A stretch of 48,662 nt of DNA from a virus. Taxonomy: Duplodnaviria; Heunggongvirae; Uroviricota; Caudoviricetes. A program made the translations under genes and the position numbers. A model generated the notes under the pieces. The model did not search any database. It had not been told where the DNA came from and worked only from the letters and a program-made list of their open reading frames with translations. Numbering within the stretch: the stretch's first letter is position 1; each line of letters opens with the position of its first letter. Of the stretch, positions 11,592 through 48,662 are shown piece after piece. The DNA is taken from IMG/VR virus record IMGVR_UViG_2547132418_000015; one strand, 5' to 3'.

Positions 11592-12016
11592 CAGATAAAC
11601 CCCTTCTGTTTTCGTGAAAAAACAGGTGGATCAGACTGAATCTGCACAAGATCCTCTCCCTCCGGAGAGGCTGCCGTCCTGCTTTCCACACCCGGATCTG
11701 TTTTGCCATCACGTACCTGTTCCAGCCAGCGCACCGTGTCCCTGTAAGTTGCGGTGATCTGCTCGGTGGGTTGTGATTCATTCAGATAAAACCAGGCCAC
11801 CACGCAACACTGCCGTTTCAGCAGTGAGGGGACGACGGTAAGCGGCAGAACAAAGCGCGCGGCGAGATAGCCATCAATAAAGGCCGAGGCATCTGCCAGT
11901 GCCTGTTCTGCCACGGCATCATCCGGCTGCCCGTCCGCTGTTTTAGGGCGGGTGAGAATATCCAGCCGCGTACGTGTATAGCGGGCGCACAGGTCATTTA
12001 CCGTCGCGTAATTCAT
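11591..12016 (-). CDS. Head-tail connector protein (Mu gp36-like)
   Basis: 141-aa ORF, synteny. Confidence 0.65.
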   Translation of the reverse strand: MNYATVNDLCARYTRTRLDILTRPKTADGQPDDAVAEQALADASAFIDGYLAARFVLPLTVVPSLLKRQCCVVAWFYLNESQPTEQITATYRDTVRWLEQVRDGKTDPGVESRTAASPEGEDLVQIQSDPPVFSRKQKGFI

Positions 12017-12423
12017 GCATCCGCCTCAGCCAGCGCCGCTTTGATTTGCGCACTGCTCACCGGTTCCCCCAGCGCCGCACTGACGGCTTTCACTTTGGGT
12101 TCTCCCCCTGCGGTAAAGTGTTCCGGGTTTGCCTTATCCAGACCGGCAAGGGTCGCACGGATACGGGCGTTCAGATCGCCCACACCCAGAACGTCCAGCC
12201 CCCCAGCCTCAGCGAGCGTTTCTGCTGACGATGCAGATACCACAGACAGCACGCTGTCGGCACGAATGATCGCCAGTTGTTCTTCGGTGACTTCCACGGT
12301 GTTTTCGCCACGTGTAAAGGCGATTCCGGCGCGGCGGTAGACCGGACGAAGGCATTTAATAATCGCCGTGCAAGTGATGCGAGAAGTGTCCAGCCGTTGT
12401 GAATTAAGCGAAGTCCCTGACAT
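12013..12423 (-). CDS. Head-associated protein (Mu gp35-like)
   Basis: 136-aa ORF immediately downstream of the major capsid gene and its terminator. Confidence 0.6.
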   Translation of the reverse strand: MSGTSLNSQRLDTSRITCTAIIKCLRPVYRRAGIAFTRGENTVEVTEEQLAIIRADSVLSVVSASSAETLAEAGGLDVLGVGDLNARIRATLAGLDKANPEHFTAGGEPKVKAVSAALGEPVSSAQIKAALAEADA

Positions 12424-12456
12424 AACACATGCTCCTCCTTTTCCTTTATATCAGGT

Positions 12457-12481
12457 TAAAAGGCGGTCTGAACCGCCTTTT
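12457..12481 (-). terminator. Putative intrinsic terminator downstream of the major capsid gene
   Basis: AAAAGGCGGTCTGAACCGCCTTTT hairpin 8 nt after the capsid stop. Confidence 0.5.
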
Positions 12482-12489
12482 AATGACGG

Positions 12490-13407
12490 TTACAGGTAGT
12501 CAGCGACAACCAGTTGCAGCTTGCCCTTCATCTCGTTGGAGACGGTGGTATTGCCATCCGCGAACAGTTCACGGTTAAGCAGTTGCTCTGCGGCTTTTTC
12601 CAGCCCGACCGGTACAACGATATGCGTCGGCTTCAGGCCCAGCTTCTTACCGCCATCACCTTCAAAAGAGCGCATCAGTTGCCAGCCCTTCCAGAGGTTA
12701 TCCAGCGTCAGATCGCCTTTTACCGCGACAGCCATCTGCCAGAAGCCGTAACCGGCAGCACGCCGGGCGCTGGCACCAAACAGGAACTCGTTATCCATAA
12801 AAACGTGGTCGTCATCGATACGGGTACGTGCGACCAGTTCGGGTTTGCGGCGCTCCTGGAAAATCAGCGGTTTGACTGCGCGGGAGCAGTCCAGCAGATA
12901 GAACGGCAGACCACTGAAGCTGTCCTGTTCAACGATGTTAGAGGTATTCTTTACGTCGCCCGTGCCGTCCACATTCGGATATACCGGATGCTCCTTGTCG
13001 AAGAAGTTCTGACCGTCATAGCAGTGCTGGGTAAAGCCATCTTTCAGAAGTTTAAAAATCAGCTCATCCGGCTGAACTGCCGCAGAACGCCCCATCTCCT
13101 GAAAAATCGGCGCATAAATACCCAGATTGTCATCCTCGAAGTCATCACGGGAAATACCCACGGTGCCTTCAAACGTTTTATTGGCGATGGAGTAGCCATG
13201 CGCTTGCATTTGCTGAATGGTTCGCTTACCCACCCATTCTTTCAGGGTCGGGAATTTACCCAGCCAGCCATAGGTATTGCTGCGGGTGGAAGAGTTCACC
13301 GCCATTGCAATTCTGCTGTACTGCGACGGGGCGTCTTCAAGACCGCCCTGAAAATCCTTACGCCAGGAGGTCATCAGGGCTTTAATGGATGCCGGGGTGA
13401 CAATCAT
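12490..13407 (-). CDS. Major capsid protein (Mu T-like)
   Basis: 305-aa ORF after the protease/scaffold gene. Confidence 0.88.
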   Translation of the reverse strand: MIVTPASIKALMTSWRKDFQGGLEDAPSQYSRIAMAVNSSTRSNTYGWLGKFPTLKEWVGKRTIQQMQAHGYSIANKTFEGTVGISRDDFEDDNLGIYAPIFQEMGRSAAVQPDELIFKLLKDGFTQHCYDGQNFFDKEHPVYPNVDGTGDVKNTSNIVEQDSFSGLPFYLLDCSRAVKPLIFQERRKPELVARTRIDDDHVFMDNEFLFGASARRAAGYGFWQMAVAVKGDLTLDNLWKGWQLMRSFEGDGGKKLGLKPTHIVVPVGLEKAAEQLLNRELFADGNTTVSNEMKGKLQLVVADYL

Positions 13408-14489
13408 TTTTCTTGTTCCTGTTTCATTTTCAGATACTCAGCCTCAGTAATGCCGAGCGCCTTCACTGCTGCCTGTTCATCAGCAGACAGCACCGCCACC
13501 GCCGGTTTTTCCTGTGACGGTTTTTTCGCTGTGGTGGTCTGCATGGCAGATAACGCAGCGATGGGCTGTTTTTCCTCAAGCTGTGCCGACAGTGCCGCCA
13601 CGCCAATCTGACCGCCAAGCTGTTCCAGGTAAGTGCGTTCGCTTTTGAAAATGCGGCCTTCCTGTTCCGCCTTGTCCAGAACGGCGCTCAGGCTGGCTGC
13701 GGCGCTTTGTGCAGTCGCCTGTGCCAGTTCATCACGCAGGGCGTTGTAGCTTTCCACCGGGACGTATTTCGTCAGGTCAACGGCGGCTTTCTGTGCCTTT
13801 TCCAGTTCGGCGGATAACGACGCCACTTTTCCGGCATCTGTTTCGAGTGCATCAAGCGCACTCAGGGCCGCACTGGCCTGTTCATCGGTGATGTCTGCAT
13901 TTTCGGGGACCGTCACTCCAAGACGCGCAAGCAGCTTGCGCAGCGTTTCATTCATGGGTTTGTTCTCCTGTTGAAGGATGTCGGGAAGGTCTGCCGCCAG
14001 TGCGGTCAGCTTTTTCATGCCGGTGGCACCGGGGTCATTGGTCAGCGCAGCAAGGCGGATTTGCAGCACCGCACCGGTGGCGGTGTCATACGGAAAAACC
14101 GCAGAGAGATAACCAAATTCGCCGTCATCGATGCGCTGCTGCGCCGCCGCCGTCCAGCGTGGGTGGATAAATAATCCTTCCCCTTCACGCCACTGCATTT
14201 CATCGGCGTTAAACCAGCCAGCCGCGACGAGTTGTTCCGGGGGTAATCCTTTGTCCTTACGTAGCTGGTTATGCTCGTAATCAATCAGTACGTCCTGGTT
14301 GAGCGCGCGAACGCCTTCAACCAGACGCCCGGCAATCTCACCGTCGATGAACCACCCCTGACCACCTGTCACATCAAACGGGCGACCATCACGGGCACTG
14401 AAATGACCGGCAGGCAATAGCTGGCACCAGCCGTCATCGTCAATGGACAGCGCACTCAGTGCGGCAATGCCAATCGCGTGTTTTTTCAT
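13404..14489 (-). CDS. Head maturation protease/scaffold (Mu I-like)
   Basis: 361-aa ORF with Ala/Glu/Gln-rich coiled-coil-like C-terminus. Confidence 0.85.
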   Translation of the reverse strand: MKKHAIGIAALSALSIDDDGWCQLLPAGHFSARDGRPFDVTGGQGWFIDGEIAGRLVEGVRALNQDVLIDYEHNQLRKDKGLPPEQLVAAGWFNADEMQWREGEGLFIHPRWTAAAQQRIDDGEFGYLSAVFPYDTATGAVLQIRLAALTNDPGATGMKKLTALAADLPDILQQENKPMNETLRKLLARLGVTVPENADITDEQASAALSALDALETDAGKVASLSAELEKAQKAAVDLTKYVPVESYNALRDELAQATAQSAAASLSAVLDKAEQEGRIFKSERTYLEQLGGQIGVAALSAQLEEKQPIAALSAMQTTTAKKPSQEKPAVAVLSADEQAAVKALGITEAEYLKMKQEQEK

Positions 14490-28397: not shown

Positions 28398-29336
28398 TTA
28401 ATTACGCAGCAGCGTTGAAATATCAACGTCCAGGTCTAATTCACGGAAAGCCTGACGCAGATAATCTTCGTTAACACGCTCACCTTTACCGTGAGCCGTC
28501 ATGGCGGCAAGGCGAAGTGAATGATTCAGAATGCGAAGCGCACCTGGTTTCTGCGCAATCTGCTGTAATAACTCCAGTTCATTTTCGCCGTTAATCTGCC
28601 AGGCATCCGCAATAGCTTTTACATCGGCTTTTTTGGTTTTATTAATTGCAGTGCGCTTTGCAATACGGGAAAACAGACGGGCAAATTCAACCGTTCTGTT
28701 ACCCCCCGTCATATTTGAATAAACCCGGTGATTTCCCATCAGCACAAGGCCAGTGCGGGTTGATTCCTGTAACAGGCGGAGTTCTTCCAGAACTTCGGCA
28801 CCAAGATGATCAGCTTCGTCGATGATAACCAGCCCCTGTGTACCTTCAAGGCGACGTCGCAGGGCGCGGGAGAGCGGCCCTTTACGGCGTGGTGCGTCAT
28901 TCATTCCCAGCTCAAACGCCAGTTCAGTAAGACATTCCAGAACGCTGGCACAGGATGGCGTAATGGTGATCATCCAGACATTGTTATTGGTGCGGCGATA
29001 TTCACGGGCCGCTTCGGTTTTGCCCACACCAGGATTGCCACATACAACAGCAATACTTTCAGTCAGGCTGGCAAAACGCATACTTGTCCAGATTTGTTTT
29101 ACCGTCTGCGTTTCCACAAAGCGGGGCGGTTCAGGTAGTTCTGCCACTGCATGATATTTTTCCAGCCAGCGTTGCAGCATTTGTGAAACACGCTCGTTAT
29201 CCCCGTTGTACTTATCATTGATAAAACTACTGATAGTTCCGGTAGAAAGTCCGCTCTCAAGAGCAATTTGTTTAAAGGTGGTTTCTTCATTTTCTACAAG
29301 CGTGCGCAGTCCTGCGCGAATATCGGAAATATTCAT
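28398..29336 (-). CDS. B: Transposition ATPase B
   Basis: 312-aa ORF with Walker A GNPGVGKT, directly downstream of the transposase. Confidence 0.9.
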   Translation of the reverse strand: MNISDIRAGLRTLVENEETTFKQIALESGLSTGTISSFINDKYNGDNERVSQMLQRWLEKYHAVAELPEPPRFVETQTVKQIWTSMRFASLTESIAVVCGNPGVGKTEAAREYRRTNNNVWMITITPSCASVLECLTELAFELGMNDAPRRKGPLSRALRRRLEGTQGLVIIDEADHLGAEVLEELRLLQESTRTGLVLMGNHRVYSNMTGGNRTVEFARLFSRIAKRTAINKTKKADVKAIADAWQINGENELELLQQIAQKPGALRILNHSLRLAAMTAHGKGERVNEDYLRQAFRELDLDVDISTLLRN

Positions 29337-29374: not shown

Positions 29375-31363
29375 TTAAATGGCTTTTTTACGTCTGTTCT
29401 GTTCCAGAATATCCAGCGAATGATTCAGATATTCATCACGCTCAGTTTCGTATTCATCATCACGCTCCTGATTCTTCACCCGTTCCGTATTACCGGAAGG
29501 CCGGAAAATGCCGACAATTCGTGATTCTGGTGCTTCAGGTTCGGCTATCTGCGGCAGCAGCTCTGCCACTTCCAGTGCATCCATTTGTTTCTGTGCCTTA
29601 ATCGCTGCTTTCGTCGCAGATTTCAGTTGTTTCTGGCGGCGGCGATATTCACGGCCTGCCGCAGCATCATTAAACGCAACAGGTGCCAGACATTCCGCTT
29701 CACAGATAAACCGACCGTCCAGGGTGTAACAATAAACCGTGCTGTGTAGCTGCTGCGGATCAAACCTGACCACAACTTTTTTCACGCCGGCATTCATTAA
29801 TGCCATGTTGTAATAAACGTTTTTCGCGCCTTTAAGGGAGCCGCCAACTTTAAGCGTAAACTCGCCTTTGCGTGAAACGTTCACCGCCTCGGCAGGCAGT
29901 AACAGCATCCGTTTTTGTTCTTCGGTTGGCTTACGCACAATCGTTCTGGCGTATTCACGCTCGAAAACATCATCAAACGAGAGTTTGCCCCCGCACATTT
30001 CTGTTTCACGGCCTGTTCTGGCATTGAACATCGCCACACCTTCGGCAAGGTTTTTCAGAAACAGCTCTGCATCAACAGCGCGGTTGCCATAGTTATCAGG
30101 TTTTGCCTGCGGATTTGGCCCCGTATATGCGCCAGCCAGTGCCGGATGCTTATCAACGTATTCCTCAAGCCCACCAACACCGAAAGCACGTTCAACAGGT
30201 TTTGCCTGGCCCCAGCCTTTACCGGCAACAACGCTTGTCCAGTGCATTTTCGCACCCATCAGTAAAAACAATCCCTTTGGATCGTCTTCTTTCACCTTAA
30301 AGCGGTAGCGATTGGGCGCGCCTCCCGTCAGCCATTTATTCGCAGCACCACGGGTGTTATCAATGGTGATGTGAAAATCCTCCGGGATACCGTAGCGAGT
30401 CACAACATCCATGAACGAGAGGCGAATTGAATCAATGTTCTCGCTCACATCGCAGCGCCAGCCCAGAATTTTTCGGGTTTTCACATCCTGCCAGAACCAT
30501 GTTTTCGGGCGGATCACATCACCGTTAAACCAGCGTACAAAGACGTTATGCAGATAACCGTCGCCGTTGATCCACTGCATGGCGTCCAGGTGTTCCACAG
30601 TTCGCTGCTGTGCCGGTATCAGATGCATCAGTGCATGTTCACCTTCACGACAGGCAACAACCATTGCCTCGTCCAGTTGCTGAATCCGGCGAAAGGCCGT
30701 GGCACGGGAGGGAATCCTCCAGCCATGCTCGCGGGCTGCCAGTTCCAGACGCTCATAACATTTGCGGAAGGCGGGTTTTTCCGGTCGCAGATAATCTGCA
30801 ATCAGAAACTGCCAGGCATCCTCGTCAAATTCACTTTTGTGAACATTGCGACGGGATGCACCACGTCCATCAACAAGTGCAGCCGCCCAGTCAGGCTTCG
30901 CAAACTTCTGTACCTGGTAATACTTGTCCCGCAAAGTGGATGCGCTGACCTGGTAATGCCCTGCAACGGTCGCAAAAGCCGTTTTCGTTGAAATCCCCTG
31001 GTTCAGCATTTCGTCTGCAGCCTGAACCGCAGGCAACCATTTTTCAGCAAGTCTGCGCTGGGAATCGCTGGCTTTATCCCATTTGCTCCACAGCACCTCA
31101 CGATCATAATCATGGGCTTCCAGCGTGGGGCGGGCGATTTCAAAACGGCCCAGGCTTGTTTCAATTCTCCCTTGTTGCAACAGAATTTCAGCACGTAATG
31201 CGACAGGGAATGATTTGATATTGAATTCAAATGATACACCTTTAGTCCCTGCAACCTGTCTGAACTCCCAGCCTTCTCTTTGTGCCTTACGTGTAATGTT
31301 AGTGGCTTGCTTTGGTAAACCTGCCAAACCGAGCAACTCTTTTGCTGTATACCATTCTTTCAT
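29375..31363 (-). CDS. A: DDE transposase A
   Basis: 662-aa ORF, Mu A-like over most of its length with a divergent N-terminal DNA-binding region. Confidence 0.93.
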
Positions 31364-32957: not shown

Positions 32958-32972
32958 GGTAATGACTCCAAC

Positions 32973-33476
32973 TTACTGATAGTGTTTTATGTTCAGATAA
33001 TGCCCGATGACTTTGTCATGCAGCGCCACCGATTTTGAGAACGACAGTGACTTCCTGCCCAGCCTTGCCAGATGCTGCCTCAGATTCTGGTTATGCCGCT
33101 CAATTCGCTGCGTATATCGCTTGCTGATAACGTGCAGTTCTCCCTTCAGGCGGGATTCATAAAGCGGCCAGCCATCCGTCATCCATACCACGACCTCAAA
33201 GGCCGACAGCAGGCCCGGAAGACGCTCCAGCGTGGCCAGAGTACGCTCACCAAAGACGCGTGCCACCACCGTCCTGCACATCCTGCCATAGGCGTAAAAT
33301 AACCAGCGCTGACGTGATTTAGCCCCGACGTAGCCCCACTGTTCGTCCATTTCCGCGCAGACAATGACGTCACTGCCCGGTTGTATGCGTGAGGTTACCG
33401 ACTGCGGTCTGAGTTTTTTAAGTGACGTAAAATCGTGTTGAGGCCAACGCCCATAATGCGGGCGGTTGCCCGGCAT
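32973..33476 (-). CDS. insB: IS1 InsB (transposase frame, made as InsAB' by frameshifting)
   Basis: 167-aa ORF ...[22 protein letters not shown]... Confidence 0.88.
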
Positions 33477-33670
33477 CCAACGCCATTCATGGCCATATCA
33501 ATGATTTTCTGGTGCGTACCGGGCTGAGAGGCGGTGTAAGTGAACTGTAGCTGCCATGTTTTACGGCAGTGAGAGCAGAGATAGCGCTGATGTCCGGCAG
33601 TACTTTTACCGTTACGCACCACGCCTTCAGTAGCTGAGCAGGAGGGACAACTGATGGAGATGGAAGCCAC
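33395..33670 (-). CDS. insA: IS1 InsA
   Basis: 91-aa [46 protein letters not shown]... Confidence 0.9.
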
Positions 33671-33729
33671 TGGAGCACCTCAAAGACACCATCGTACACT
33701 AAATCAGTAAGTTGGCACCATTATCCGGC

Positions 33730-35650
33730 AGGCGATCTGGATTATCGTCACGCTGTTAAATATGTCGCGGTAGGGATACCCGTTACCGGATACCCCCCGC
33801 ACAGATCCCGGCGTGCGCGATTTACGCACCGGGCTCCTGCCTCGGGTGTCTGGCGGTGAACCGCTCCACAGGCCATGGATGAAGAACCCGAACCCTTGGT
33901 AGCCATGCGGCTGCCAGTTTGTTTGCTTTCGTCCAGGTCGTATCATCCTTCTGGCTCCTGCGCCTGAGCGCCCGGCGCCAGAGGTTTGTTACGTGTGTCC
34001 TGAACTTCTGCATGGTGGGGAAGTTGCCCGGTACCGAGTGATAGTTCAGGTATCCCTGAACCACTCTCCTGAGCCATTTTCCCTGTTCGGGGATTGAGTA
34101 ATGCCAGCGCCTTCGCAGACCGTCTTTGATGGCTTTCAGAGTTGCCGTCATCCGATCCCGGCGGGTCTTTCGTATCAGCATGAACCTGCCGTTGCGATCT
34201 TTCCCGCTGATGTGCGTGAACCCGAGGAAGTTGAACGTTTCTGGTTTGCCTTTTCCCCTGATGGCACGGTTTTCGGCAGCGAAGCGGCCGAACTCCATCA
34301 GACGGGTTTTCTCCGGGTGAACCGTGAGTCCGAACTCCCTCAGTCTGCGCTGCATGGCTATACGGAAGCGCCGGGCATCGTATCGTTTGTCGAACCCGAT
34401 GACGATGTCATCGGCGTATCTGACCATTACCACATTGCCTGTGGCATAGCGACGTCGCCACTGATGCGCCCACAGATCGAAGACGTAGTGGAGGTATATG
34501 TTTGCCAGCAGCGGTGAGATGACCGCACCCTGTGGGGTGCCTTCCTCCGTTGCTCGCCATTGACCCTCCTCCAACGTCCCGGCTGTGAGCCACTTACGTA
34601 TGAGCCTGATTACGCTCCGGTCGCCGATCCGATGCTCTGTGAACCTGATCAGCCATTCGTGGCTCACCCTGTCGAAGAACTGACTGATGTCGGCATCCAG
34701 TACCCAGTTTACGTTAGTGCGTACCAGCCCTGTGGCCAGTGCGTCCAGTGCATCGTGCTGGCTTCGCCCGGGTCTGAACCCGTATGAGAACCCCATAAAG
34801 TCGTTTTCATAGACTGCGTTCAGGATTTTCACCAGCGCATACTGGACGATCTTGTCCTCCAGCGAGGCGATGCCGAGCGGGCGTTGTTTTCCATCCGCTT
34901 TTGGGATGTAGTGACGCCTGCCGGGCTGCGCCCTGTAGCTGCCCTAATGTAGCCTCCGGTGCAGATCTGTTATGTTGTTCTTCATGTTTCCGGCGTAGTC
35001 CATCCACCTGATGCCATCCACTCCGGCGGCCGCTTTCCTGCTCAGGGAGAGGAATGCGGCTTCCAGTGCTTCGACTGTCAGCAGGTGGAACAATGCTGTA
35101 AACCGTTCTTTCTTCCGCTGCTTCGCAGCTTCCCGCACGCGTGACAGCCTCTGTGACATGCTTTCCCGGCTCTGTGTCCGGCGCATGTGTGGCTGTTCCG
35201 CGTTCCCCTTGGCCCCGCTCCTTCGCTCCACTGACTCCGCTCCTTTCGGGTTGTTCGCCTGCTTCGCCGCTACTATGAGCGAGTCCGACTTCTCCTCTCC
35301 GTACATCACCGGCTATGACTCCTCGTCTTCCCGGTGCGGGCCGTCTCCGACACTGGCAGATGGTCAGAGGGGAGATCTCCCGGTTCCCGCGTAGAGATCG
35401 TATTGACATGCCAGGGTCTCAGACCCCGCCGGGTCCATGTGGCACTCGCAGTATCGCACCCTATGATGTTGCCTTCCGTTAACAGTACAACGTCGGCACC
35501 CGGTAATTTAATATACATTTCGTGGCTCAATGGCTGGCCTGTCAACACCCCTGTCAACGCTTCGCCCCATACCTCGCGGTATGCAACGCATGACTCGGGG
35601 ACCTTGTGGATTGCTGGTCCTTCAATGGTCGGGGACTTTCACCCCTTGAT
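33730..35650 (-). mobile_element. Group II intron 1, boundaries approximate, 5' end possibly truncated
   Basis: Reverse transcriptase ORF; domain V-like GAGCCCGGTGCGTAAATCGCGCACGCCGGGATCT on the minus strand at about 33803-33836. Confidence 0.6.
33822..35309 (-). pseudogene. Group II intron reverse transcriptase/maturase interrupted by an in-frame TAG
   Basis: ORFs 34944..35309 and 33822..34832 are in the same frame, separated only by TAG at 34944-34946; motifs AAGVDG, FRPGRSQHDA, YADD. Confidence 0.8.
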
Positions 35651-35674
35651 CTCTACCGGTCTCCCGGTGAGCAC

Positions 35675-35690
35675 TGTATGTATAACCAGT
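35675..35690 (+). promoter_or_regulatory. LexA (SOS) box upstream of the umuD-like gene
   Basis: CTGTATGTATAACCAG fits CTG-N10-CAG, 26 bp upstream of the ATG. Confidence 0.75.
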
Positions 35691-35715
35691 AAAATTAGAG
35701 TGTCAGGAGGAAAGA

Positions 35716-36146
35716 TGAAACTACAACTTTTCAGCACCGGGAAAGAACTCCCGCCACAGGCCCATCCATTGTTTGCCGATCTGGCCAGCTGCGGTTTTCC
35801 CAGCCCTGCTGCTGACTATGTCGAGTCCGATCTGGATCTCCATGATTACTGCATACGGCATCCGAGCGCGACGTACTACCTGCGTGCCAGCGGAGACAGC
35901 ATGGCCGACGGCAGTCTGTACAATGGCGATCTGCTGGTTGTGGACAGTGCTGAAAAGCCGCGGCACGGCGATATCGTTGTCGCCAGCATGCAGGGGGAGT
36001 TTACGGTGAAACGGCTTCTGCTGACGCCGCGACTGACGCTGCAGCCCATGAATGCCTCCTGGTCGCCGATTTATCCTGATCCCGACGAGCTGGATATCTT
36101 TGGCGTCGTCACGCATATCATCCACCGCCCGAGGGAGATGTACTGA
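35716..36146 (+). CDS. UmuD-like translesion polymerase accessory protein
   Basis: 143-aa [37 protein letters not shown]... with Cys-Gly cleavage site; track ORF 35334..36146 is a spurious upstream extension. Confidence 0.88.
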
Positions 36147-37417
36147 TGTTTGCCCTGGCCGATGTGAACAGCTTCTATGCCAGCTGTGAACGTGTTTTCC
36201 GCCCGGATTTGAAAGGAAAGCCGATAGTCGTCCTGAGCAACAACGACGGGAATGTAATCGCTCGCAGTGCCGAGGCGAAGCCCTGGATCAAAATGGAAAC
36301 TCCGTGGTTTCAGATAAAAAACGAAAGATACCCGGAAAAAATATATGCGTTTTCAAGTAACTATGAACTTTATGCCTCGATGTTGGCGCGCGTGATGAAC
36401 AGCCTGGAGGAACTGGCCCCCAGAGTGGAACAGTATTCAATTGATGAGATGTTCCTCGATTTGACCGGCGTGGAGCACTGTATGGAGCTTGAGGACTTCG
36501 GCCGGCAGCTGCGTCAGCACGTGTATGACTGTACCCACCTGACCATTGGCGTGGGCGCCGGACCAACGAAGACCCTCGCAAAATCAGCCCAGTGGGCCTC
36601 AAAAGAGTGGAAACAGTTTCGTGGCGTACTTGCTCTGACCAGGGGAAATCCGCAGAGAACGCGGAAACTGCTTTCACTGCAGCCGGTTGAAGAAATCTGG
36701 GGGGTGGGTAACCGTATTGCACGCAAGCTGAATGTACTGGGCATTAAGACCGCGCTCGATCTCGCCCTGACGAACCCGGCCTTCATCCGCAAAAATTTTT
36801 CTGTGGTCCTTGAGCGAACGGTACGGGAACTGAACGGGGAAAGCTGCCTTTCGCTTGAGGAAGCCCCTCCGACGAAACAGCAAATTGTCTGCAGCCGCAG
36901 TTTTGGCGTGAAGATCACGGAGTACGAGTCACTCCGTCAGGCTATCTGTCAGCACGCAGAGCGGGCCTCTGAAAAACTGCGTAAAGAGCACCAGTATTGC
37001 CGGCATATTTCCGTTTTCATCAAAACGTCTCCGTTCGCCATTAAAGAGCCTTACTACGGCAACGTGGCTACGGAAAAACTTCTTACACCCACTCAGGACA
37101 CCAGGGACATCATTGCAGCCGCTACAACGGCTCTGGAGCGTATCTGGAGGGATGGGCACCGGTATGCCAAAGCCGGAGTTATGCTGAATGACTTCACCGG
37201 CTCCGGCGTTTCGCAGCTGCAGCTGTTCGACGAACGCCCGCCACGCCCTTACAGTGCTGAGCTGATGAAGGTTCTGGACGGGATCAACAACTCAGGGCTG
37301 GGTAAAGTATGGTTTGCGGGGCGGGGTATTGCCCCGGAATGGCAGATGAAACGGGAGATGCTTTCTCCTGCTTATACGACACGATGGTCAGATATTCCTT
37401 CAGCGAAACTGGCGTAA
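36146..37417 (+). CDS. UmuC-like error-prone DNA polymerase V catalytic subunit
   Basis: 423-aa [22 protein letters not shown]...SNNDG..., Y-family polymerase; start overlaps the umuD-like stop. Confidence 0.9.
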
Positions 37418-46620: not shown

Positions 46621-48308
46621 GTGTGCCCGGAGTTCAGGGCGGGCATGGATGCTTAAATGAACCGCGAGTCTGTCTGGAATATTGAACCGGTAACTCACGA
46701 TGAGAAACCCAACAATCCCACCGGGTGTGACGGTGGAGAACCTGAGCGGCAGTGACCTGCGGCATGCCCGCAGGGTGATGTAACCCGCTGACAACGGGGA
46801 TTGAGGCGAGATCACTAAGCCGAGATGATCCTCAAGGTTAAGTACTGAAAGGCTGAAGAACATGAACCCGTTAATCCGCCTCTGTGGGTTGAAAACGTCA
46901 CCACGGCCTACGTGATCTGACAGGCCGTGCAGGAGGAACTGGCAGTGATACGTAAGCACTGCCGGTCGAAGGTGTTTTGACATGTATGCGAAACACCGGG
47001 GCAGCAGCGTCTATCACGCTTGCGTTGCTGACTTCTGCCAACTTGCGGCAAGCAAGGATAAAGAGTGCGACGGGCAGCCTCCTCAGTATGCCTGAGTCCA
47101 GGCAGGTAAACCGGGGAAGGTCAGCGACGGATGTTAAGGGGGCATGGCTCCGATGACGCGCTGGCTGGCGGAGCTTCCGTAGTAGTCCGCGATGGGGAAA
47201 GCCCATTACATGGCGAAGGGAAGCAGTTTGAATGTGTTTGCGACGTGAATTAACTGACCTAACGAGGTGAAGACCTTTGATAATCAGCGAAATGCAACGC
47301 AAGCTTGCCACATGGGCAGCCACCGATCCGTCCCTACGGATTCAACGGCTGCTGCGTCTGATAACACAACCAGAATGGCTGGCTGAAGCGGCGCGGATCA
47401 CGCTTTCATCAAAGGGGGCGCATACCCCCGGCGTTGATGGCGTGAACAAAACAATGCTACAGGCCAGACTGGCTGTTGAGCTGCAAATCCTCAGGGATGA
47501 ATTACTCTCAGGCCACTACCAGCCCTTGCCCGCCAGACGGGTTTACATCCCTAAAAGCAACGGCAAACTGCGACCACTGGGTATCCCCGCGTTGCGGGAT
47601 CGTATTGTTCAGCGGGCCATGCTGATGGCGATGGAGCCGATATGGGAGAGTGATTTTCATACGCTCTCATATGGCTTCCGGCCTGAGCGCAGTGTCCACC
47701 ACGCGATCCGCACGGTGAAATTACAGCTCACAGACTGCGGTGAAACCCGGGGACGCTGGGTGATTGAAGGCGACCTGTCCAGTTACTTCGACACCGTACA
47801 TCATCGACTGCTGATGAAGGCTGTACGCCGCAGGATCAGTGACGCACGTTTCATGACTCTGCTGTGGAAAACCATCAAGGCGGGACATATCGATGTCGGT
47901 CTCTTTCGGGCGGCCAGTGAAGGTGTGCCACAGGGCGGTGTTATATCGCCGCTATTATCGAACATCATGCTGAATGAGTTCGATCAATACCTGCATGAGC
48001 GCTACCTGAGCGGGAAAGCCAGAAAAGATCGGTGGTACTGGAATAACAGTATCCAACGGGGCCGAAGTACGGCGGTCAGAGAAAACTGGCAGTGGAAACC
48101 CGCGGTGGCGTACTGCCGCTATGCCGATGATTTTGTCCCCATCGTCAAAGGCACCAAAGCACAGGCGGAAGCCATCAGGGAGGAGTGTCGGGGTGTGCTC
48201 GAAGGCAGTCTGAAACTCAGGCTGAACATGGATAAGACTAAAATCACCCATGTTAATGACGGCTTTATCTTTCTGGGGCACAGGATCATTCGCAAACGCA
48301 GTCGTTAT
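46621..48308 (+). mobile_element. Group II intron 2 (5' part), inserted in IS3-family orfB and truncated by IS26
   Basis: Starts GTGTGCCCGG; about 656 nt of structured 5' region, then a reverse transcriptase ORF that runs into the IS26 terminal repeat at 48309. Confidence 0.8.
47277..48308 (+). pseudogene. Group II intron reverse transcriptase/maturase, C-terminally truncated by IS26
   Basis: ORF 47277..48335 with HTPGVDGVNK, YIPKSNGKLRPLG, YCRYADDFV motifs; last residues are read from the IS26 terminal repeat. Confidence 0.85.
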
Positions 48309-48662
48309 GGCACTGTTGCAAATAGTCGGTGGTGATAAACTTATCATCCCCTTTTGCTGATGGAGCTGCACATGAACCCATTCAAAGGCCGGCATTTTCA
48401 GCGTGACATCATTCTGTGGGCCGTACGCTGGTACTGCAAATACGGCATCAGTTACCGTGAGCTGCAGGAGATGCTGGCTGAACGCGGAGTGAATGTCGAT
48501 CACTCCACGATTTACCGCTGGGTTCAGCGTTATGCGCCTGAAATGGAAAAACGGCTGCGCTGGTACTGGCGTAACCCTTCCGATCTTTGCCCGTGGCACA
48601 TGGATGAAACCTACGTGAAGGTCAATGGCCGCTGGGCGTATCTGTACCGGGCCGTCGACAGC
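48309..48662 (+). mobile_element. IS26, 5' part beginning with terminal repeat GGCACTGTTGCAAA
   Basis: Terminal repeat at 48309-48322, transposase start at 48372; 48432-48662 is identical to 1-231. Confidence 0.93.
48372..48662 (+). CDS. tnpA: IS26 transposase, N-terminal part
   Basis: MNPFKGRHFQRDIILWAVRWYCKYGISYRELQEMLAERGVNVDHSTIYRWVQRYAPEMEKRLRWYWRNPSDLCPWHMDETYVKVNGRWAYLYRAVDS. Confidence 0.93.
   Translation, partial: MNPFKGRHFQRDIILWAVRWYCKYGISYRELQEMLAERGVNVDHSTIYRWVQRYAPEMEKRLRWYWRNPSDLCPWHMDETYVKVNGRWAYLYRAVDS

Follow-up and report, generated by a model that had tools for sequence, protein, structure and literature searches.

The window analysed here is the whole 48,662-nt stretch of the virus record IMGVR_UViG_2547132418_000015 (IMG/VR; Caudoviricetes). 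Between an insertion sequence (IS) of the IS1 family and the LexA operator of a umuDC-like operon, it carries a group II intron on the minus strand, in which the open reading frame (ORF) of the reverse transcriptase (RT) is interrupted by an amber codon (Table 1). A sequence-only reading of this region had named the intron, as well as the LexA box and the umuDC-like operon beside it. Both identifications held, with the intron on the minus strand and the umuD/umuC-like genes on the plus strand. The intron matched the full Rfam model RF02005 together with TIGR04416 and RVT_1, while the two genes matched the Peptidase_S24 and IMS families. We consider it highly probable that what lies here is Kl.pn.I5, a mobile group II intron, in a copy that is complete in position yet inactivated. 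Kl.pn.I5 has been equated with Se.ma.I1 (PMC6764390), and its gene is called retA in the literature on IncR plasmids. The copy itself is ordinary. It is already catalogued and annotated as a pseudogene, and it represents a member of Kl.pn.I5/Se.ma.I1 in a decayed state.

Table 1. Features of the intron locus and of other elements in the window. Nucleotide (nt) numbers of derived changes count from the 5' end of the intron.
Feature	Position	Strand	Details
Full-length group II intron, very probably a decayed Kl.pn.I5 / Se.ma.I1 allele	33764..35672	-	1909 nt; empty-site comparison and intact copies
Mutated 5' splice-site pentamer GCUCA	35668..35672	-	active: GUGCG; changes U2C, G3U, G5A
Domain I core	35414..35639	-	Rfam RF02005 group-II-D1D4-6; 186.6 bits, E 8.7e-55, model positions 1-225/225
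Exon-binding site (EBS) 1, ACUGUU	35481..35486	-	hairpin loop; complementary to intron-binding site 1 (IBS1) (A)ACAGU, the last LexA-box bases
EBS2 candidate, UGUAUAUU	35510..35517	-	complementary to operator -14..-7 (G/U)AUAUA(C/U)A; unpaired stretch in Rfam structure
RT/maturase ORF, interrupted	33822..35309	-	1488 nt, 495 codons; YADD at residue 298, GVDG at 96
Amber codon, Gln122 CAG->TAG	34944..34946	-	upstream of all catalytic RT motifs
Domain V, GAGCCCGGUGCGUAAAUCGCGCACGCCGGGAUC	33804..33836	-	RNAalifold, 18 relatives: 12 pairs, 5 with compensatory changes
Domain VI, bulged A at 33771	33766..33801	-	15 pairs, 6 with compensatory changes; A 8 nt from 3' end
Derived change nt 2	35671	-	U>C
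Derived change nt 3	35670	-	G>U
Derived change nt 5	35668	-	G>A
Derived change nt 330	35343	-	U>C, non-coding
Derived change nt 727	34946	-	C>U, CAG Gln122 -> TAG
Derived change nt 1059		-	G>C, R232S
Derived change nt 1100		-	C>U, S246L
Remnant of original 3' exon	33726..33763	-	38 nt; matches empty-site ATATTTAACAGCGTGACGATAATCCAGATCGC
IS1-family element	32958..33725	-	768 bp; terminal inverted repeats, InsA/InsB ORFs, annotation 'IS1X3 family'
LexA operator of umuDC-like operon, CACTGTATGTATAACCAGTA	35672..35691	+	20 bp; core CTG-N10-CAG 35674-35689; position 1 = complement of intron G1
umuD-like gene	35715..36146	+	Pfam Peptidase_S24
umuC-like gene	36146..37417	+	Pfam IMS/IMS_C
Intron 2, second unrelated group II intron	~46622-48311	+	5' end GTGTGCCCGG; inside IS3-family transposase gene
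Intron 2 RT ORF	47277-48335	+	TIGR04416 295.9 bits, just below cutoff
MuA-type transposase	29375-31363	-	
MuB-position ORF	28398-29336		

The ends of the intron were defined by empty sites. Plasmids pBSI032-KPC2 and p15732-KPC carry the homologous umuD without the intron and read CATACAGT/ATATTTAAC at the insertion point, whereas the window reads CATACAGT, then GCTCACC...CCGCGAC, then ATATTTAAC, and a target duplication is absent. Read more widely, the empty site is ...TTATGCATACAGT/ATATTTAACAGCGTGACG..., and the window runs from ...TTATACATACAGT into the intron, GCTCACCGGG......CCCTACCGCGAC, and on to ATATTTAACAGCGTGACG.... Comparison of the window with these two intron-free plasmids therefore gives an insert of 1909 nt, from 35672 to 33764. 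Such a precise insertion, with empty sites in existence, is what is expected of a mobile group II intron. The operator in its empty-site version reads TACTGTATGCATAACCAGTA.

The same ends were found in intact copies. These are 1909 or 1910 nt long, encode the intact sibling of the RT (WP_004178082.1, 495 amino acids) and occur for example in pBio3, pCMC387M_P2, pC127_NDM1 and E. coli chromosomes. They start with GTGCGCCGGGAGACCGG, finish with CCCTACCGCGAC and are collinear with the window copy from end to end; the 3' end ...CCGCGAC is common to all copies. The K. pneumoniae plasmid pK245 (NC_010886, ~12000-14100), the IncR prototype in which the reference copy of Kl.pn.I5 resides (PMC3522654, the source of the link between the name and the plasmid), holds an intact 1909-nt copy at the identical site and with the same 5' exon. 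The window copy is nearly identical to it, with 8 differences and 1901/1909 positions identical, and the flanking umuD protein is also the same in window-type plasmids and pK245 (WP_000776034.1).

The 3' boundary at 33764 corrects the earlier delimitation, which had let the intron region start at 33730. That position lies past the intron 3' end, within the stretch 33726-33763 that belongs to the 3' exon, and IS1 follows from 33725. The IS1 element thus sits 38 bp past the intron, in the 3' exon and outside the intron. In pK245 and in a Kluyvera contig (L012), the 3' flank departs from that of the window after 3 nt (ATAAAGGGCGG...). Since the window keeps the 3' exon of the empty sites, it is the reference plasmid pK245, and not the window, that was rearranged downstream of the intron.

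The structure of domain I was recognized by the curated covariance model RF02005 (gathering score 49; match 35639..35414). Domains V and VI were placed by hand and then backed by covariation with RNAalifold across 18 relatives, giving 11 compensatory pairs for the two together. Domain V forms a hairpin of ~34 nt with the AGC triad and a 2-nt bulge, and the RT stop codon is located in its 5-nt loop. In domain VI the bulged adenosine keeps the usual distance of 7-8 nt to the 3' splice site. Both EBS1 and EBS2 find complementary bases in the 5' exon. The EBS1 loop and the exon end covary in more than 15 relatives with other targets, and for the EBS2 loop such covariation with the 5' exon is seen in L031 and L032/L033; no clear EBS2 pairing emerged for L029/L030, which are beta-proteobacterial, or for the set L039-L045 from alpha-proteobacteria. 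In the window copy, domains V and VI, EBS1 and EBS2 are all identical to those of active copies.

With TAG read as Gln, the RT scored 375.8 bits against TIGR04416 (cutoff 300) and matched Pfam RVT_1, but here its frame is broken at codon 122. The frame holds exactly one stop, and the two halves share one frame. The RT is a pseudogene, one of the options that had been considered from the letters alone, and PGAP/RefSeq lists it on an identical plasmid as an ltrA pseudogene with an 'internal stop'. The exact 61-mer around the TAG was counted in 197 plasmid records, which come from several genera (its one-mismatch version in 3314 records), and also appears in the independent assemblies L001, L002 and L009. 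The TAG is therefore a genuine minority allele that is inherited, and a read error is excluded. Regarding the other end of the gene, the first ~60 codons of the annotated ORF (35306-35309 to ~35130) precede the conserved RT-0 region, and the ORF starts only ~100 nt after the Rfam domain I match. It is probable that domains II-III extend into this annotated 5' part, and an overlap of the first ~60 codons with RNA of domains II-IV is possible; translation of the RT may in fact begin at an internal Met, residue 41 or 51.

Relative to the consensus of the intact copies, the window lineage has acquired seven derived changes, three of which lie in the 5' pentamer. An intermediate pentamer, GUUCA, was found in the IncR plasmids L002 and L009. 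The pentamer and the amber codon go together: in 30/30 copies checked, GUGCG was accompanied by CAG, and GUUCA or GCUCA by TAG. The 5' consensus GUGYG, which the intact siblings and the pK245 copy have as GUGCG, is the sole defining group II feature that the window copy lacks. Since it was lost by substitution, the copy is a decayed member of the family, but still a member. The first five nucleotides of a group II intron make essential tertiary contacts and define the 5' splice site. Given what is established for group II introns, the window copy would be expected neither to splice nor to make the RT/maturase. A 1-nt difference, GGTAGAG/GGTTAGAG, was also considered as a lesion and was rejected because it is a polymorphism among intact copies.

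The following history is highly probable. The LexA operator in front of the IncR umuDC would have been the retrohoming target of an active intron, which entered it between positions 19 and 20, with the site chosen by base-pairing of EBS1 (ACUGUU) and EBS2 (UGUAUAUU) with the right half-site and the AT spacer of the operator. The intron would have landed antisense to umuDC, so that its 5' end abuts the operator, and the intact state survives in pK245 and the Kluyvera plasmid contig. In the sub-lineage of the window, the copy would then have decayed in place. The pentamer would have passed from GUGCG through GUUCA to GCUCA, Gln122 would have become an amber codon ahead of all RT motifs, and two missense changes and one non-coding change would have been added. 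A failure to splice would carry no cost, as there is no gene on the intron's own strand for it to disrupt.

Several points weigh against this account of a dead but otherwise genuine copy. The Rfam model of domains V and VI, RF00029, gave no match on 33400-36000 even at E<=10. In domain V of this clade a G.A replaces the usual G.U opposite the AGC triad; the domain is nevertheless well backed by covariation and identical in mobile copies. That the copy is dead is what we infer, and the protein of an intact sibling could in principle bind this RNA in trans. Finally, 3/7 derived changes fall within the first 5 of 1909 nt (binomial P = 6e-7, post hoc) and were acquired in at least two steps. Such clustering at the 5' end is not predicted by neutral decay, and something more acted there.

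Could the intron instead have been truncated at its 5' side, losing part of domain I when it was joined to the umuDC promoter? Only ~33 nt lie between the end of the Rfam domain I match (35639) and the LexA box, and the canonical GUGYG is missing at the junction. However, intact mobile copies have the same 33 nt before the Rfam match, with GUGCG at the homologous position. The empty sites give the same boundary, pK245 has GUGCG at this very site, and the consensus was lost by three substitutions with no deletion. We therefore give truncation next to no credence, contrary to the sequence-only reading, which had left ~30 bp between the intron and the LexA box. In fact 0 bp lie between them: the empty sites and the intact copies alike make nt 1 (35672) coincide with the first operator position, and the boundaries are precise at the full length, the same as in the mobile copies. 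The shorter distance from GVDG to the intron end than in intron 2 of the window had been taken as a sign of truncation, but intron 2 is an unrelated intron and is itself cut by IS26, so that the comparison is uninformative. The shorter distance in our intron is a family trait rather than a truncation. An RT that is functional after all, with the TAG as a sequencing or assembly error or as a suppressed codon, is hardly more credible. Although a single base separates the TAG from the functional CAG, the recurrence of the same 61-mer in plasmid records and independent assemblies excludes an error, and the TAG always accompanies the mutated 5' end. Suppression is very unlikely. The lineage has also lost the 5' splice-site consensus, and its three derived coding changes are all nonsynonymous or nonsense (two further missense and zero synonymous changes), as relaxed constraint predicts; general amber decoding is not known from enterobacteria. 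Of the possibility that the intron was complete and the TAG a read error, only the first part stood: the intron is complete as to the position of its boundaries, but its 5' pentamer carries substitutions and the TAG is genuine.

The clustering of changes at the 5' end has its own possible explanation. The intron 5' end replaces the DNA directly upstream of the umuDC operator, and the changes there might be adaptive, with G3U and G5A rebuilding a -35-like hexamer for umuDC, whose native upstream promoter element the insertion would have displaced, and the inactivation of the intron being a by-product or a later event. On the plus strand the hexamer GCGCAC becomes GTGAAC or GTGAGC, 17 bp upstream of TAAAAT, and both first-step changes bring it nearer to TTGACA. 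A simple home-made weighted scan raised the best candidate promoter score from 4.59-5.15 to 6.08, and in the same type of scan the best candidate -10 of the empty site (TATACT) straddles the insertion point. The concentration of three of the seven substitutions in nt 1-5 (P ~6e-7), in two steps leading to GUUCA and then GCUCA, would fit as well. On the other hand, a strict sigma-70 consensus scan found no promoter in the window, the intact-intron junction or the empty site, and the third change (U2C) helps neither candidate promoter. Compensation is evidently dispensable, since in ~1350 plasmid records an intron without these mutations persists at a comparable umuD junction. The clustering test is post hoc, and the umuDC promoters compared are candidates. 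We regard promoter repair as unlikely, though as an explanation to be kept in sight. A further alternative is that the fossil intron was co-opted for a plasmid function, as an insulator, a source of antisense RNA or a source of the 121-aa N-terminal peptide. Its retention in hundreds of plasmid records would speak for this, but the clonal spread of a successful backbone explains the retention. Moreover, in many IncR relatives the intron is cut by IS elements (L005, with ~31 nt left, and H85/H86), it is wholly absent from L003 and L004, and no constraint signature was seen. Co-option is thus highly improbable, and the decayed copy of Kl.pn.I5/Se.ma.I1 remains our preferred interpretation of the locus.

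The copy at the umuDC operator is one case of a wider pattern, for which junctions were drawn from loci L006-L038, L088-L099 and L101-L220. In species-representative genomes, every close relative retrieved follows a LexA box directly on its 3' side, as in TACTGTATATATAAACAGT/GTGCG. Two sister introns from beta-proteobacterial metagenome-assembled genomes (RT 69% identical) are also positioned 3' of a LexA box, one base further along. Recognisable SOS genes were not found among the genes flanking the beta-proteobacterial relatives L029/L030. A scan of metagenome contigs for the intron 5' end returned 120 junctions, 117 of them with a readable flank, which represent 52 distinct 22-nt upstream flanks. 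In 41/52 distinct junctions the flank had the form CTG-N10-CAGT/intron, and several others were one base off. The position profile, (T)ACTG(T/G)(A/T)TATA(T/C)A(T/A)ACAGT/AT, is the LexA operator consensus. The bases C, T and G at -17 to -15 were present in 49-53/57 flanks, where about a quarter would be expected by chance, and these positions fall outside the stretch paired with the EBS.

The occupied operators belong to several kinds of genes and replicons. On E. coli chromosomes the sites are the classical umuDC operator (TACTGTATATAAAAACAGT/intron/ATAACTTCAGGCAGATTATTATG), occupied for instance in strain AR_0118, and the tisB locus. On plasmids the occupied operators precede umuDC in replicons of the IncR, IncFII(K), IncHI2 and IncHI1B types, and in one ColE1-type plasmid a colicin-like bacteriocin gene. 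Insertions at umuDC span chromosomes and at least five plasmid groups. Both orientations occur because the operator is palindromic. At E. coli umuDC, IncHI1B umuDC and the bacteriocin gene the intron is in the sense orientation behind the SOS promoter, while at IncR, IncFII(K) and IncHI2 umuDC and at tisB it is antisense and displaces the upstream DNA.

The data strongly support LexA operators as nearly the sole targets of active Kl.pn.I5/Se.ma.I1 copies, with insertion after operator position 19 and before position 20. The pairing of EBS1 and EBS2 with the operator would explain why the family homes into SOS boxes, with umuDC promoters among the commonest targets. It is quite possible, although we stop short of calling it probable, that Kl.pn.I5/Se.ma.I1 and its beta-proteobacterial sisters form a retroelement that has evolved to home to the LexA operator as such, with EBS1/EBS2 reading positions 6-19 and insertion taking place at 19/20 of TACTGTATATATATACAGT/A. 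If so, sense copies would couple the expression of the intron and its RT, and possibly the exposure of free operators, to DNA damage. In antisense copies, the displacement of upstream promoter DNA may select for repair mutations like those at the 5' end of the window copy.

A population study of Kl.pn.I5 inferred a homing consensus without mention of LexA and reported no free Kl.pn.I5 sites in K. pneumoniae MGH (PMC3522654). Our full-text literature search found no paper that ties group II introns to LexA/SOS boxes, an absence that is no proof of novelty. The LexA-operator specificity of this intron family may be undescribed so far, and in that case the pattern would be one of a group II intron targeting a transcription-factor operator. 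If the specificity is real, it suggests a link from the antibiotic-induced SOS response over intron expression to intron spread in clinical Klebsiella and E. coli, as well as a possible influence on how the error-prone polymerase V genes of resistance plasmids are regulated. The flagged copy itself changes little, being a pseudogenised allele of a catalogued intron on a well-known resistance-plasmid backbone that annotation pipelines have already marked. The useful corrections are that it is untruncated, that its TAG is a real inherited allele and that its 5' splice site is destroyed too.

Many plasmids match the 2-kb region at 100% identity, and at least 80% of it is present in 4117 PLSDB records, mainly from Klebsiella, and in 204 E. 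coli genomes. The gene order repB-parAB-umuCD-ltrA-IS1 is that of the IncR backbone. Active siblings occupy up to 6 places per record, and in PLSDB alone Kl.pn.I5 has 5494 places. In the literature, 11 intron copies were counted in one K. pneumoniae genome (PMC6965571) and two new intron insertions were reported during an outbreak (PMC8269217). The active siblings thus appear to be mobile, as indicated indirectly by the many independent sites and the reported new insertions. RTs 99-100% identical to Kl.pn.I5, flanked by enterobacterial LexA boxes, were also seen on tiny contigs (L010, L011, L015-L018, L026 and L027) in assemblies of type strains of Streptomyces, Actinomadura, Microbacterium, Kitasatospora, Pedobacter, Arthrobacter, Flammeovirga and Haemophilus. 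These contigs most likely represent contamination with enterobacterial plasmid DNA.

Two other elements in the window deserve mention. In intron 2, 655 nt of RNA precede the ORF, and the left end of IS26 (GGCACTGTTGCAAA) truncates the intron at ~48311. Its RT stays below the TIGR04416 cutoff because the ORF is cut, and no Rfam match was obtained for this intron. A Mu-like prophage of ~32.6 kb fills window positions 1-32641, and at ~32641 a canonical left-end sequence of Mu (TGTATTGATTCACTTGAAGTACG...) can be read on the minus strand. The insertion site of the prophage, next to IS1, is a truncated plasmid rep gene.

Among known systems, the closest is Kl.pn.I5 (= Se.ma.I1), as catalogued in the database of bacterial group II introns, in its pK245 copy, which shares the site, the length of 1909 nt and the umuD neighbour. 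The window allele differs from this intact reference in having GCUCA instead of GUGCG, an amber codon for Gln122, R232S and S246L. Its 3' exon is ancestral with IS1 added, whereas the 3' flank in pK245 is rearranged. In 1998 Kulaeva et al. reportedly described, in Mutat Res, a group II intron in the promoter region of a mucAB-like operon on plasmid R471a of Serratia marcescens. The R471a intron may be the original observation of Se.ma.I1, with the same intron family in front of a plasmid-borne umuDC/mucAB homologue.

Introns of class C (IIC) resemble the present family in that both target a recurrent, generic palindromic regulatory motif in intergenic DNA and insert directly 3' of the palindrome. 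One IIC subgroup also uses integron attC sites. The difference lies in recognition, since here an 8-nt EBS2 and EBS1 pair with the motif's own sequence, whereas class C introns insert after transcription-terminator hairpins with EBS1 and EBS3 only (PMC3522654). Kl.pn.I5 is handled separately from class C in that study (PMC3522654). A compact IIC-type element, as the short distance to the annotated ORF might have suggested, was rejected because the EBS2 candidate covaries and the targets are LexA operators rather than terminators. IS-homing introns (E.c.I4-type), represented in the window by intron 2, are likewise RT-encoding mobile introns on mobile DNA and are often found as inactivated or truncated copies (PMC3522654). 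The RTs of the two introns of the window are only 41.6% identical over residues 83-291. Unlike the intron at the umuDC operator, intron 2 has a GUGUG 5' end, a longer 5' RNA part and a different target, and it is truly truncated, at its 3' side, by IS26.

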